Part shown: in pieces, positions 33,162 to 41,293 of the stretch
How positions within the stretch are numbered: position 1 is the first letter of the stretch
How the letters are laid out: each line of letters opens with the position of its first letter
NCBI GenBank assembly: GCA_019058445.1
Contig: JAHPZA010000006.1
Coordinates: 416,001 to 480,000 of the forward strand
Length of the DNA: 64,000 bases
Direction: 5' to 3'
DNA from: Promethearchaeota archaeon
GTDB lineage: Archaea; Asgardarchaeota; Lokiarchaeia; Sigyniarchaeales; SOKP01
The notes under the pieces: generated by a model
Database searches by the model: none
What the model saw: the letters and a program-made list of their open reading frames with translations, nothing else
What the model was told of the DNA's origin: nothing
Made by a program: the position numbers and the translations under genes

Positions 33162-33450
33162 ACTTTAATTATCAAAGATATCTTATATAAATTTAATGAA
33201 AAGAATAAACCAAGGAAAGCTCTATATATTCTCTTCAGCTAATTAATCGCTATAATATAGCTTTGGAATTTTGGAAAAATAACATGATTTATATTTAACA
33301 TTTATGTCTATAAAATACATTTTCATACTTTTATCTAATTTTTTCATACCGGATTTGTGAGGAAATTTATTACCGATAGTTTATTTAAATATAGATATTT
33401 AACCAATTCATCATATTTATTCGGAATTTTTTCATACTATTGTTTATTAC

Positions 33451-33465
33451 CGAGAAATTTAAATA
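33451..33465 (+). promoter_or_regulatory. BRE-TATA promoter for the Cys-rich peptide gene
   Basis: CGAGAAA followed by TTTAAATA about 45 nt upstream of ATG 33510. Confidence 0.55.
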
Positions 33466-33509
33466 TAGGTAGGGGATAATATTCATAACTAATCAAAAAA
33501 TTGATTATT

Positions 33510-33638
33510 ATGAAAATCGAAAAGAAAGAAAAAATTACAAGTGCCGGCTGCAAATGTGGCGGGGACTGCATCTCAACCAGCTGTAAGTGTGGAGGAGATT
33601 GCATTTCAATAAGCTGCAAATGCGGTGGCGATTGCTAA
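33510..33638 (+). CDS. Cys-rich repeat peptide, putative RiPP precursor (42 aa)
   Basis: MKIEKKEKITSAG-CKCGGDC-ISTS-CKCGGDC-ISIS-CKCGGDC*; the three cores differ only synonymously; lies directly upstream of a radical SAM/SPASM gene. Confidence 0.85.
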   Translation: MKIEKKEKITSAGCKCGGDCISTSCKCGGDCISISCKCGGDC

Positions 33639-33651
33639 ACCTCTAAAAATC

Positions 33652-33668
33652 TTTCATTTTTTTTTTTT
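33652..33668 (+). terminator. Oligo-T terminator after the peptide gene
   Basis: Run of about 12 T just downstream of the stop. Confidence 0.5.
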
Positions 33669-33725
33669 AAAACTTTATCATTTATAATATCACAATTTTA
33701 ATAAATTCAAACCTTATTTTCATCA

Positions 33726-34985
33726 ATGAATCTCAAAGATATTCCATCCATACCCCATTATATTGTTTTAAGAAGATATGAAGAAATTAATATCTTTGAT
33801 TTGAAAAATGACGAGTCTTTTGTTATCGATGATGAGGCTTATTCAGTCTTAAAGCTTATAAATGGGATTGTTTCTGTTGAAAATCTTCTTGGCAATTATC
33901 CAGAAAAAAAGAGACAAGAAGTTAGAGAAGCGTTAAATGATTTTCATGAATTAAATATTGTCAAGTTAAATTCTAATAGTATGCCAGAAAAATCAACAGG
34001 AATAATAGATCCTATTAAATTACCTGAAAAGAATATTTTTAATCCCCCGTACTTAAAGAATCTAATGATTAACATCACTGAAAAATGTAATTTAACTTGT
34101 AAACACTGCTATATTACTAATAAAAATCCTACAGATTTTCCTTTTGATAAATTAAAAGAAATAATAAAAGAATTTTATGAACTCCAAGGAATTAAATTAG
34201 TATTAACGGGAGGAGAACCATTATTATATTCCAGTTTGATAGAATTATTACGATATCTTAAGGATATACCCCTAATAAAAGTACTACTATCAAACGGAGT
34301 TTTAATAAAAGATAATCCTGAACTTATTGACCTATTAAGGGATAATTACTTTGAAGTTTTTGTAAGTATCGATGGATTAAAAGGGACTCATAATGATTTT
34401 AGAGATGCCAATTGCTTTCAAGATTCAATAGATGGAATAAAGACCTTGTTAAAAGAAGGGATAACAGTGTCAGTCAATACAATGGTTCATAAACAAAACC
34501 TTAATGAGTTTGATGAGATGTATAATTTATTTAAATCATTAGAACACATCAAAAATTGGTCAATAGACGTTCCCACCTTCGATATAACAACCCCTAAATC
34601 GATTCGAGATAAATATGAAATAACGGCAGAACAAGGGGGTGCAATTTTGAGAGATTATGGATGGGGTGAATATCATAGTTCAGAAAGTTATGATTTTGCC
34701 TGTGGACCTAATATTATGGCTATTGATGTGCTTGGTGTTGTTACCAAATGTGGTTTCTTCTATAATGAGAATATAGGGAATGTGTTTGAACTGGGCCTTA
34801 AAAAGAGCTGGGAGTTAATTCAGAAGAATTTGAATTGGAGGATCCCGGAATTAGAATGTAACAAACTGGATTGTGAATATCTTGAAGCATGTCGTGGAGG
34901 TTGTAGATATCGAGCATATCAAGCAACAGGAAATATGTGTGGAATAGATTCATTTAAATGTGCGCAATTTGGAAGATTAAATTAA
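33726..34985 (+). CDS. Radical SAM/SPASM peptide maturase with N-terminal PqqD/RRE-like domain
   Basis: CNLTCKHC, LTGGEP, SIDG; SPASM Cys set (CGPN..KCG..CNKLDCEYLEACRGGCR..C); ~85-aa N-terminal RRE-like region. Confidence 0.9.
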   Translation: MNLKDIPSIPHYIVLRRYEEINIFDLKNDESFVIDDEAYSVLKLINGIVSVENLLGNYPEKKRQEVREALNDFHELNIVKLNSNSMPEKSTGIIDPIKLPEKNIFNPPYLKNLMINITEKCNLTCKHCYITNKNPTDFPFDKLKEIIKEFYELQGIKLVLTGGEPLLYSSLIELLRYLKDIPLIKVLLSNGVLIKDNPELIDLLRDNYFEVFVSIDGLKGTHNDFRDANCFQDSIDGIKTLLKEGITVSVNTMVHKQNLNEFDEMYNLFKSLEHIKNWSIDVPTFDITTPKSIRDKYEITAEQGGAILRDYGWGEYHSSESYDFACGPNIMAIDVLGVVTKCGFFYNENIGNVFELGLKKSWELIQKNLNWRIPELECNKLDCEYLEACRGGCRYRAYQATGNMCGIDSFKCAQFGRLN

Positions 34986-35049
34986 TGAAATTAAAAAAGA
35001 AAATTAATTTTAAAATAATTAAACAAAATAGAAATAAAATTCTTAATAG

Positions 35050-35304
35050 GTGTATATTATGGCTAAAAAACATGAAATTTTAAGAACGGAAGCAGATATT
35101 AGCCCTCTTAACCGTCAGTTAATCAACCATGTATGTCATAAATGTAATTTTTATCATGAAGAACAAGAATATTGGGAAAGAGAGTATGAATGCGCTGCTT
35201 ATAAATTTATTCGTCAGTTAGTTGAAGAAAAAAAAATTACAATTGACCAAATCGATGATATTTTTACCAAGGTTGATTTAAATCCCGAAAGAGACTTAAG
35301 ATAG
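35050..35304 (+). CDS. Small Cys/His protein, possibly metal-binding
   Basis: HVCHKCNFY...ECAAY; co-oriented downstream of the rSAM gene. Confidence 0.55.
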   Translation: MYIMAKKHEILRTEADISPLNRQLINHVCHKCNFYHEEQEYWEREYECAAYKFIRQLVEEKKITIDQIDDIFTKVDLNPERDLR

Positions 35305-35362: not shown

Positions 35363-35794
35363 TTATTGTAAATTCTGCACGAGTTCCTCAAATTTTTTAA
35401 TGGCGCCATCATTCTCTCTTTCGACACATCCAATATCCCCGATGTGTTCCAACTGTGGAAATCTTTTTTGAATTCCACTACATGCCTTTTTCCACATATC
35501 AGGCCCTCCTGATGTCCCAAAGCAAATTAATTTCTTATTTTGAATATTTTGCTTTTTAATAACTTTTAAAAGACTTTTTAATGTACGTGCGGGTGCCATC
35601 GCATGAGTACATGATCCAAAGACGAGTAAATCATATGGATCAAAAAAACTGTCATTGCTCTGGATTTGAGATTTAATATCTTTGTCTCGATACATGTCCA
35701 CTTCATGGCCATTTTTCTGAAGAACTTCCCCCATTTTATTGGCTAATTGTTCAGTATTTCCTGACTTAGTATTATAAATTATAATTGATTTCAT
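35363..35794 (-). CDS. Flavodoxin-like protein
   Basis: IYNTKSGNTEQLA FMN loop, FGSCT, FGTSGG. Confidence 0.85.
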   Translation of the reverse strand: MKSIIIYNTKSGNTEQLANKMGEVLQKNGHEVDMYRDKDIKSQIQSNDSFFDPYDLLVFGSCTHAMAPARTLKSLLKVIKKQNIQNKKLICFGTSGGPDMWKKACSGIQKRFPQLEHIGDIGCVERENDGAIKKFEELVQNLQ

Positions 35795-40300: not shown

Positions 40301-40972
40301 TTAGCTCACCCCTAATATTTCTTCTGTTGTTATGAGTTCTGGTTTTGTCTTGTAAATGAAATACACTATAAACGCGGAAATTATTGCTTCCCCAATTCCA
40401 ATTATGAGATGCCAAAATACCATCGCAGGAATAGCGATTGACATTGGTATGGCTCCTCCAATCCCTATCTCAATGCCTGCTATTAAAGCCGCTAAAACTA
40501 TGGCAATATATGATCCTATAGCCGTTGCAATAGTGACTTTCTTTTCTTTCTCCATATTTGTCTTGTTTAATCCCATCATAATGAGTTTTACGATATAAAA
40601 ACCAACCATTCCGCCGATGATGCCCATATTAAATGTATTTGCGCCGATTGCTGTTATCCCGCCATCACCAAATAAAGATTGTACAATTAAAATCATAAAA
40701 ATCACGACAACTGCTGCCCAGGGTCCTAAAATTACGCCAACTAAGGTACCTCCTACCAAATGCCCTGAAGTACCGCCTGGAACTGGATAGTTGACAAACT
40801 GAAATGCAAAGATAGTTGCCGCTAAAACACCGATATAGGGGATTAATTTCTCTGAATCTTCATCTTCGAAAGAATTTCTAATTTTTTTGAAACCAAAGAC
40901 CAGTACCACTATGGTTACAATCCATAATACTACCGTGGTCACAGGATCCAACAAACCATCCGGAATATGCAT
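40301..40972 (-). CDS. cbiM: ECF Ni/Co transporter substrate component CbiM/NikM
   Basis: N-terminal MHIPDG (NikM-type), GTSGHLVG, GDGGITAIGAN. Confidence 0.92.
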   Translation of the reverse strand: MHIPDGLLDPVTTVVLWIVTIVVLVFGFKKIRNSFEDEDSEKLIPYIGVLAATIFAFQFVNYPVPGGTSGHLVGGTLVGVILGPWAAVVVIFMILIVQSLFGDGGITAIGANTFNMGIIGGMVGFYIVKLIMMGLNKTNMEKEKKVTIATAIGSYIAIVLAALIAGIEIGIGGAIPMSIAIPAMVFWHLIIGIGEAIISAFIVYFIYKTKPELITTEEILGVS

Positions 40973-41062: not shown

Positions 41063-41293
41063 GGAAAAAAAGGATTAATCCTTTATAAATGAGTATGAAA
41101 AAATTAGAAGAAAGTATGAAAGTGCATTTTTGAAAAAATAAATCTCGTATTTTCTGAAAGATAATTTAATTTTAAAGAAAATATGATTTGGTGATTAGGA
41201 TTATATTTTTTAAAATTACCATATTTTACTTAAAAATCTAACTTCTGAAAAATAATAGTTTTAAATACTTAAATTTCTATTATATTATTGATT

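Follow-up and report, generated by a model that had tools for sequence, protein, structure and literature searches.

Peptides modified by radical S-adenosylmethionine (SAM) enzymes are well known in bacteria. To our knowledge, archaeal examples with experimental grounding are very few, and none has been described for the Asgard archaea. The closest characterized systems to the one considered here are CteB of the SCIFF peptides, PapB, and SkfB, and, among archaea, the CrpC/CrpA pair. CrpC is an archaeal enzyme that combines a recognition element (RRE) for ribosomally synthesized and posttranslationally modified peptides (RiPPs) with radical SAM and SPASM domains; it carries three [4Fe-4S] clusters and introduces ranthionine links into a protein rich in Cys (PMC13692751). 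We analyzed a 64,000-nucleotide stretch of a Promethearchaeota genome (contig JAHPZA010000006.1, positions 416,001 to 480,000), hereafter the window, in which a short open reading frame (ORF) for a peptide with repeated CKCGGDC units precedes a radical SAM gene. A preliminary description of this DNA from the sequence alone had proposed a precursor peptide and its maturase in an Asgard archaeon; the host agrees with the labels of the related genomes (Promethearchaeota/Lokiarchaeota). The region probably encodes, in its Asgard form, a conserved peptide-maturation cassette of three genes, for a short precursor, an RRE-radical SAM-SPASM enzyme, and a small partner protein with three Cys residues. 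The pair named in the preliminary description is borne out, and an obligatory third member, an 81-aa protein, had been overlooked. The three genes, in window numbering, are as follows.

33510..33638, + strand: precursor peptide gene encoding 42 aa, with a 13-aa Lys-rich leader, three CKCGGDC cores, and a C-terminal Cys
33726..34985, + strand: radical SAM/SPASM enzyme of 419 aa (PF04055) with an RRE-like domain at about residues 1 to 85
35059..35304, + strand: 81-aa helical three-Cys partner protein with invariant C26, C29, F31, and C45, probably cotranscribed with the enzyme

The precursor peptide and its family

The peptide gene reads as the preliminary description gave it. A Lys/Glu-rich N-terminal segment (residues 1 to 13) is followed by three identical CKCGGDC cores on an 11-aa period, separated by the linkers ISTS and ISIS. 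Nine of the 42 residues are Cys (21%), and Phe, Tyr, Trp, and His are all absent. Pairwise comparison of the three 21-nt cores yields 5, 4, and 5 differences, and 14 of these 14 are in third codon positions and synonymous. Across the 41 cores of 14 orthologues, the invariant Cys is encoded by TGC or TGT (17/24), the invariant Lys by AAA or AAG (25/16), and the invariant Gly by all four of its codons, a synonymous choice that is nearly random. Because the differences between the cores are exclusively synonymous and the codons are randomized over the 41 cores, we conclude, with the preliminary description, that the peptide is under selection at the protein level. A chance ORF is ruled out by the family conservation together with the codon evidence. 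A degenerate search for the CKCGGDC pattern in the 4.6-Mb genome returned three matches, all within this gene, and the reversed control returned 0. None of the small products (the 42-aa peptide, its 20-aa bacterial counterparts described below, and the 81-aa protein) has a match in Pfam or NCBIfam.

A family hidden Markov model (HMM) built from the 14 orthologues was searched in 61 related genomes, in which the presence of the enzyme was scored at an E value of ≤1e-30 (23 genomes with and 38 without). The peptide HMM matched 19 of the 61 genomes, all of them among the 23 with the enzyme and none among the 38 without it, although these genomes are kin, so that the contrast of 19/23 with 0/38 overstates their independence. 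At the genus level within the family, the peptide and the enzyme are both present in the same seven genera. When 60 relatives were searched in all six frames, 14 genomes had at least two CKCGxxC units, and none had the control pattern. Members of the family share a common layout, namely, a leader of the MKIVKKEK type, a T/S/A-rich stretch, and one to three CKCxxxC cores, with the chain ending exactly at the terminal Cys. Genome G006 has a single-core 20-aa peptide, and single-core peptides also occur in G057 and G058, which belong to a different family and have an enzyme only about 35% identical. The fifth and sixth positions of the core vary among the orthologues (GD, GG, DS, ST, SA, SS, and QS).

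The placement of the peptide gene relative to the enzyme is variable. It lies about 190 nt upstream of the enzyme in four genomes (the source genome, G000, with G018, G025, and G030), about 0.8 kb upstream in two (G005 and G012), and head to head with it in three (G004, G006, and G009). It is 3 to 9 kb away on the same contig in another four (G013, G017, G024, and G027) and on a separate contig in two (G011 and G032). The preliminary description had staked the pairing on Cys-repeat ORFs lying beside the orthologues of the enzyme, and most orthologues have such an ORF. In G027, the peptide gene, with cores of the form CKCGGDAC, lies 3.2 kb upstream of an enzyme orthologue that is interrupted (G027:C38:66311-67447) by an internal TGA and split into two overlapping ORFs (73 and 373 aa), possibly because it is a pseudogene or because of a frameshift or an error in the assembly.

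The radical SAM enzyme

The next gene starts 87 nt after the peptide ORF and, as the preliminary description held, encodes a radical SAM enzyme with SPASM-type Cys residues. The radical SAM core is recognized by Pfam PF04055 with an E value of 1.7e-22, and in an alignment of 57 homologues, the CX3CX2C motif (C121, C125, and C128) is invariant. Seven further Cys residues of the SPASM type (C326, C342, C378, C383, C389, C393, and C412) are likewise invariant in the 57 homologues, with the spacing CX15C...CX4CX5CX3C...C, and the Pfam SPASM model itself did not match the enzyme at an E value of ≤1. The Cys assignment published for CrpC (PMC13692751), if transferred to this enzyme, would leave auxiliary cluster I with only three protein Cys ligands, a feature also of CteB.

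An AlphaFold2 model of the enzyme, with a mean predicted local distance difference test score (pLDDT) of 90.5 (about 90 for the N-terminal domain), has, within residues 6 to 75, three strands (residues 13 to 17, 21 to 25, and 30 to 34) followed by three helices (36 to 42, 51 to 55, and 60 to 75). A Foldseek search with this model retrieved SuiB as the top match over its full length (E = 2.8e-16, about 465 aligned columns), followed by CteB, SkfB, TigE, and anSME, and the structural alignment to SuiB, CteB, and anSME continues through the C terminus of the enzyme. A profile search of the PDB sequences recovered SkfB, TigE (8vpo), anSME, CteB, and SuiB, with the alignments to TigE, CteB, and SuiB starting inside the N-terminal domain (at residue 18 for CteB and residue 9 for SuiB). 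The preliminary description had called this N terminus PqqD/RRE-like; the fold and the alignment to CteB and SuiB agree with that call, but no Pfam family, PqqD included, matched residues 1 to 105, so that the RRE assignment stands at the level of predicted fold and profile alignment. Together, these observations support the enzyme being an RRE-radical SAM-SPASM protein of the RiPP maturase type.

The enzyme does not come near the curated cutoff of any NCBIfam maturase family. Its best score is 111 bits, for NirJ and AhbD (cutoffs, 515 and 500 bits), and it scores 59 bits against PapB (NF047865; cutoff, 340), 68.5 bits against ACGX (TIGR04340; cutoff, 400), and 76 bits against MftC (cutoff, 265); it also falls under every cutoff for the StsB, CefB, ScmE/F, GeoRSP, and PqqE models. 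The orthologues in G004, G006, G009, and G018 are longer (446 to 467 aa) and carry an insertion between about residues 320 and 323 (numbering of the enzyme in the window), just before the SPASM region.

To examine the association of the two proteins, the enzyme alignment and the peptide alignment were combined in one complex prediction job with three runs. The complex scored 0.74, with the best control at 0.02; among solved complexes, 58 of 80 attain this mark, as do 2 of 110 mismatched pairs, and since the CteB-CteA and SuiB-SuiA complexes have been solved, the score may reflect that likeness. The runs had at least 30% of their contacts in common, with a pLDDT of the modeled peptide of at least 38. 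Confident contacts in the model join leader residues 1 to 6 and 8 to 13 with enzyme residues 29 to 38 (the last RRE strand and the first helix), 65 to 76 (the third helix), and 309 to 318. The modeled placement of the leader corresponds to the canonical leader-RRE mode and shows likeness rather than demonstrating binding. The cooccurrence in 19 of 23 versus 0 of 38 genomes, the frequent adjacency, and this modeled leader-RRE complex together support the view that the peptide and the enzyme belong together.

The three-Cys partner protein

The gene that starts 73 nt after the enzyme gene encodes the strictest companion of the enzyme, adjacent to it in every locus examined. It follows the enzyme in 16 of 16 lokiarchaeial loci and lies downstream of the distant enzymes in G057 to G060, in the last of which it is duplicated. 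In a Methanosarcinales contig, it is upstream of the enzyme, and in a Thermodesulfovibrionales metagenome-assembled genome (MAG), it is divergent from the enzyme and again duplicated. Across the phylum, 21 of 301 sampled genomes, belonging to 4 of 30 families, encode the partner. Identities of 63 to 100% were seen among 105 database relatives, all of them unnamed, a conservation above that of the enzyme. When 1.84 billion representative sequences were searched with a profile, 105 clusters of 47 to 146 residues were recovered, with C26, C29, F31, and C45 invariant. In each of four diverse members, the gene immediately precedes a radical SAM gene and overlaps it.

The architecture of two metagenomic contigs bears on the role of this protein. 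In one (L146:7101-8615, oriented copy), a duplicated partner domain is fused in frame to a whole RRE-radical SAM-SPASM enzyme, and in an unrelated one (L202:4625-5233, oriented copy), a duplicated partner is in frame with an RRE, the frame stopping after the RRE. Such Rosetta stone fusions favor an accessory subunit over a released substrate. The predicted structure of the partner consists of four helices (pLDDT, 86), for which neither Foldseek nor VIA-align (best Z score, 4.0) retrieved a significant PDB match; the matches of the protein in the Atlas are only to unnamed clusters of small proteins.

Bacterial cassettes and recurrent neighbors

The preliminary description had presented an archaeal system. 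That part does not hold, as a single-core form of the cassette is widespread in bacterial metagenome contigs and is also present in the Thermodesulfovibrionales MAG. Beside the enzymes of this MAG and of three metagenomic contigs lie 20-aa ORFs that read MTIKKV.K.....CKC...C and then stop; one of them has a GTG start. A metagenome scan for this ORF matched at least 120 contigs, of which 80 were analyzed. The enzyme is adjacent in 52 of the 52 contigs with at least 1.3 kb upstream, with the gene order enzyme-peptide in 50 and peptide-partner-enzyme in 2, and the partner protein is encoded in 48 of the 48 contigs with at least 1.7 kb upstream. The bacterial peptides are almost invariant in both leader and core; they have a single core, CKCK[AS]SC, and hence three Cys residues. 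The bacterial homologue of the enzyme is, like that of the window, under every NCBIfam cutoff, and its best match, far below the cutoff, is the mycofactocin maturase. The cassette, which many anaerobic bacteria carry, is common in sediment, wetland, and peat metagenomes.

Several genes recur in the bacterial neighborhoods. In 26 of 58 loci, an ATP-grasp gene (PF02655) starts no more than 400 nt past the 20-aa peptide; rubrerythrin is present in 14 of 58, and NifS/NifU are present in 10 to 12. Genes for a 60-aa ferredoxin and a 2-oxoacid:ferredoxin oxidoreductase are also recurrent near the bacterial cassettes. A flavin adenine dinucleotide (FAD) amine-oxidoreductase (about 505 aa, PF01593) is near the cassette in 11 of the 80 bacterial contigs and beside the cassette or the peptide gene in four Lokiarchaeia (G011, G017, G025, and G030). 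The source genome encodes a 63% identical enzyme on another contig (G000:C5:99827-101335), unlinked to the cassette. In the window, a flavodoxin-like 143-aa gene (35363-35794, - strand) is convergent on the cassette, an arrangement not conserved in other genomes; its product could act as the reductant of the radical SAM cluster. No exporter or protease is conserved near the cassette, in line with the absence of such neighbors noted in the preliminary description.

Promoter elements and a candidate metal regulon

The upstream region of the peptide gene contains the following elements, to which the stretch after its stop codon and a second site in the window are added.

33323..33349, + strand: distal TCATAC pair, TCATAC-N5-TCTAAT-N4-TCATAC, with 21-nt spacing; operator-like and found at most orthologous loci
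33411..33437, + strand: proximal TCATAY pair with 21-nt spacing, abutting the TATA box (direct repeat D12)
33451..33467, + strand: B recognition element (BRE)/TATA-like element, consisting of a purine-rich stretch and TTTAAATATA
33657..33668, + strand: 12 consecutive T residues behind the stop codon of the peptide gene, resembling an archaeal terminator
41093..41130, - strand: the distal element again, at about 120 nt before cbiM (40301-40972, - strand)

The BRE/TATA-like element and the T run, both read from the sequence, had been noted in the preliminary description. The TTTAAATATA box (33458-33467) is about 48 nt before the peptide ATG, the upstream regions of 19 orthologues have a box of the ATTTAAAWA type at an equivalent position, and T-rich stretches also follow the peptide gene in orthologues. 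That the gene has its own promoter is borne out, and a conserved operator-like element common to it and the Ni/Co uptake genes had been missed. Across the 19 loci, the upstream regions have little in common beyond four TCATAY boxes arranged in two pairs. Within the window, the promoter of the peptide gene seems to be a tandem duplication: positions 33323-33395 and 33411-33467 each hold a TCATAY pair followed by ATTACCGA and a TTTAAATATAG box, the two copies being 88 nt apart.

In the 4.6-Mb genome, the 29-nt distal element has only two copies, at 33321-33349 and upstream of cbiM, both oriented alike relative to the downstream gene; the 33323/41093 pair appears as inverted repeat I1 (38 nt, 89% complementary). 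The gene at 40301-40972 is CbiM by NCBIfam, with a score below the curated cutoff. With one mismatch allowed, the element is also found before cbiM in G005 (G005:C4:209222), before a gene for a metal-chelate-type binding protein with weak family matches only (G024:C31:19379), and before a TrmO/TsaA-like 200-aa gene in the source genome (G000:C4:24381-24407) and in G003. The cbiM, TrmO/TsaA-like, and binding-protein genes that carry TCATAC-N5-TCTAAT-N4-TCATAC are a candidate small regulon. The TCATAC half-site resembles the half-site of Escherichia coli NikR, but the boxes here are direct repeats. This operator common with uptake genes suggests, and does not prove, that the peptide is expressed under metal limitation, which would fit a chaperone, a store, or a metallophore better than a detoxifying metallothionein.

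An operator common to the radical SAM operon was ruled out, as only 0 to 1 boxes are present in the 300 nt upstream of 16 radical SAM genes. The bacterial cassette has no general link to CbiM/CbiQ, which gave no matches in the 80 contigs except at one locus (L133). In three loci from two other families (f6 and f7), the peptide promoters have repeated TAATATTACGC-like boxes in place of TCATAC, which suggests a different regulator.

Proposed mechanism and alternative explanations

From these observations we infer the chemistry, product, and function of the cassette as follows. The leader would bind the RRE as a β-strand, against the enzyme strand at residues 29 to 35 and the helix at residues 65 to 76, and the core would enter the active site. 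Since auxiliary cluster I apparently has only three protein Cys ligands, a Cys thiolate of the core could ligate it. The 5'-deoxyadenosyl radical would then abstract a hydrogen atom from a C-H bond of the core, and the sulfur would capture the resulting radical, giving one intramolecular thioether per core and up to three in the 42-aa peptide. In the preliminary description, Asp had been considered as the acceptor. We set this idea aside because Asp is absent from most orthologous cores, in which positions 5 and 6 vary, and because the bacterial cores have KAS or KSS in the corresponding stretch. As only C-K-C...C is invariant, the acceptor would instead be an α-carbon or the Lys side chain. 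The partner may serve as an accessory subunit, possibly one that binds a metal or a cluster. With no exporter or protease conserved nearby, the product probably stays in the cell, and in the lokiarchaeal lineage it probably serves the nickel/cobalt, or a wider metal/redox, economy.

A more specific proposal is tentative and, as it stands, rather doubtful. The cassette might yield a previously unknown Cys-derived metallopeptide or cofactor of anaerobic bacteria and archaea, in which the cross-linked CKCxxxC forms a site for Ni/Co or Fe-S. The Lokiarchaeia would have multiplied this unit and placed it under the regulator of CbiMN, with the product acting as an intracellular Ni/Co chaperone or store.

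Some observations weigh against a precursor-maturase cassette of this kind. Four enzyme-bearing genomes (G014, G023, G059, and G060) have no match to the peptide HMM; in G014, the enzyme gene is at a contig end, and in G060, a related 21-aa ORF is head to head with the enzyme gene despite escaping the HMM. Several Lokiarchaeia have the peptide gene kilobases away from the enzyme or on another contig, and the enzyme promoters lack the TCATAC operator, so that the peptide and the enzyme are not obviously coregulated. In the complex model, the core of the peptide is poorly placed (pLDDT, 39 to 48), and a leader of 13 aa is short for an RRE-dependent system. Moreover, bacterial peptides so nearly identical to one another are more in keeping with a cofactor precursor or housekeeping peptide than with a typical, variable RiPP.

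One alternative is that the peptide goes unmodified and, like a metallothionein, buffers or chaperones Ni, Co, or other thiophilic metals; its link to the radical SAM operon would then be indirect, e.g., through metal or Fe-S supply to a three-cluster enzyme. The CKCGxxC-x4-CKCG motif, which also counts against a modified product, is found in plant type 3 metallothioneins and in Cys-rich proteins that bacteria secrete. When 185,579 species genomes were scanned with it, the peptide family appeared in Promethearchaeota only, the other matches being plant type 3 metallothioneins on tiny contigs and, in bacteria, a few Cys-rich stretches that are secreted or C-terminal. On the basis of the metallothionein matches, the motif is to be read as a true metal-binding one. 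(The metallothionein genes are on eight low-coverage contigs of 266 to 541 bp in bacterial or haloarchaeal assemblies and are probably plant contamination.) A composition of 21% Cys with no aromatic residues, a peptide promoter operator common with cbiM and the metal-chelate-type binding-protein and TrmO-like genes but lacking from the radical SAM promoter, and the unlinked or distant position of the gene in some genomes would all suit such a buffer. It leaves unaccounted for the absence of the peptide from 38 of 38 relatives without the enzyme, the 13-aa N-terminal segment that is conserved from bacteria to archaea and modeled on the RRE, and the bacterial single-core forms, whose three Cys residues are too few for a thiolate cluster and which are always within the radical SAM cassette. 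Hence, we regard an unmodified metallothionein as quite improbable; modification and metal binding are not mutually exclusive and may well coexist.

Closer to a modified peptide is the idea of a precursor of a small cofactor or metallophore in the manner of pyrroloquinoline quinone (PQQ) or mycofactocin, in which the radical SAM enzyme would make the first CKCxxxC cross-link, later enzymes would excise or tailor it, and three cores would give three units. The extreme conservation of the 20-aa bacterial precursor in leader and core recalls PqqA and MftA, the enzyme is a radical SAM/SPASM protein with an RRE, and the best, if far subthreshold, NCBIfam match of its bacterial counterpart is the mycofactocin maturase; the recurrent ATP-grasp (26/58), FAD amine-oxidoreductase, rubrerythrin, ferredoxin, and NifS/NifU neighbors also speak for this idea. 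Yet no peptidase is conserved in the cassette, the accessory genes occur in only a minority of loci, and in the window neither an ATP-grasp nor an oxidoreductase gene is adjacent, the oxidoreductase orthologue being on another contig; we regard this explanation as improbable too. Finally, the 81-aa protein could itself be the true substrate, in the manner of CrpC/CrpA or QhpD/QhpC, with the short peptide functionally unrelated. It is the only gene always adjacent to the enzyme and has three invariant Cys residues and an invariant Phe, and installation of thioethers in a protein by an archaeal radical SAM-SPASM enzyme is documented (PMC13692751). The fusion of this domain to the N terminus of the RRE in two unrelated contigs, in one of them with the whole enzyme, suits an accessory domain, the short peptide is equally constant in the bacterial cassettes (52/52), and it is the peptide leader that is modeled on the RRE; we therefore consider this substrate assignment very improbable.

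The three-gene cassette with a peptide substrate thus remains our preferred reading. The near-invariant precursor, the obligatory Cys-containing partner, and, in Lokiarchaeia, the promoter element common with Ni/Co uptake genes set it apart from antibiotic-type RiPPs and suggest a housekeeping role for the product, e.g., as a cofactor, metal chaperone, or redox buffer. At 20 to 43 codons, the peptide gene is too short for routine annotation, which probably accounts for the lack of a Pfam or NCBIfam model and of any report of the cassette in the searchable literature. The cassette is small enough to be reconstituted in E. coli, so that the chemistry of this new radical SAM/SPASM subfamily and the role of the partner are directly testable.

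Comparison with known systems

The general kind of system, a radical SAM/SPASM enzyme with an RRE acting on a Cys-rich peptide, is known, but this subfamily, its peptide, and its partner are represented by no family model or paper; the four core strings searched are absent from the papers of the searchable literature, and surveys of archaeal RiPPs treat the radical SAM classes only in general terms. Like CteA/CteB (SCIFF), PapA/PapB, and SkfA/SkfB, the system described here couples a short Cys-containing precursor bearing an N-terminal leader with an enzyme composed of RRE, radical SAM, and SPASM (twitch in SkfB) domains. The likeness to CteB extends to the three protein Cys ligands apparently present at auxiliary cluster I, and the leader in our model sits on the RRE as in the solved CteB and SuiB complexes. 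It differs from these systems in its 7-residue CKCxxxC core without a conserved Asp, Asn, or Thr acceptor, in its obligatory third gene for a three-Cys helical protein, in a precursor that is nearly invariant across phyla, and in an enzyme far under the NCBIfam maturase cutoffs, PapB included (59 versus 340 bits).

Among archaea, CrpC/CrpA of Methanococcus voltae (TIGR04463) resembles it in having a repeated Cys motif as the target, within a protein with a leader-like N terminus and a Cys-rich C terminus, and in its suspected metal- or sulfur-related physiology. CrpA is, however, a large protein with ten 17-residue repeats containing C-x-x-Q/D, in contrast to the 20 to 43 residues and CKCxxxC cores seen here, and the Crp system has no counterpart of the 81-aa partner. 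The PQQ (PqqA/D/E) and mycofactocin (MftA/B/C) systems share a very short conserved precursor with a reactive C terminus, a radical SAM/SPASM enzyme, and an RRE, which is fused here, and the product would, like theirs, be intracellular and housekeeping-like rather than a variable antibiotic. Their reactive residues are Glu/Tyr or Val/Tyr, whereas those here would be Cys and Lys; no peptidase is conserved here, the Asgard peptides are multicore, and the scores to PqqE and MftC are far under their cutoffs. With plant type 3 and bacterial metallothioneins, the peptide has in common an identical CKCGxxC-x4-CKCG motif, a high Cys content, a lack of aromatic residues, and a gene apparently regulated together with metal-transport genes; it is distinguished from them by its phyletic dependence on the radical SAM enzyme, its conserved leader, and its single-core forms with three Cys residues. 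Against this background, the new features of the system are its obligatory partner, its near-invariant precursor, and the multicore Asgard form with its link to a candidate metal regulon.

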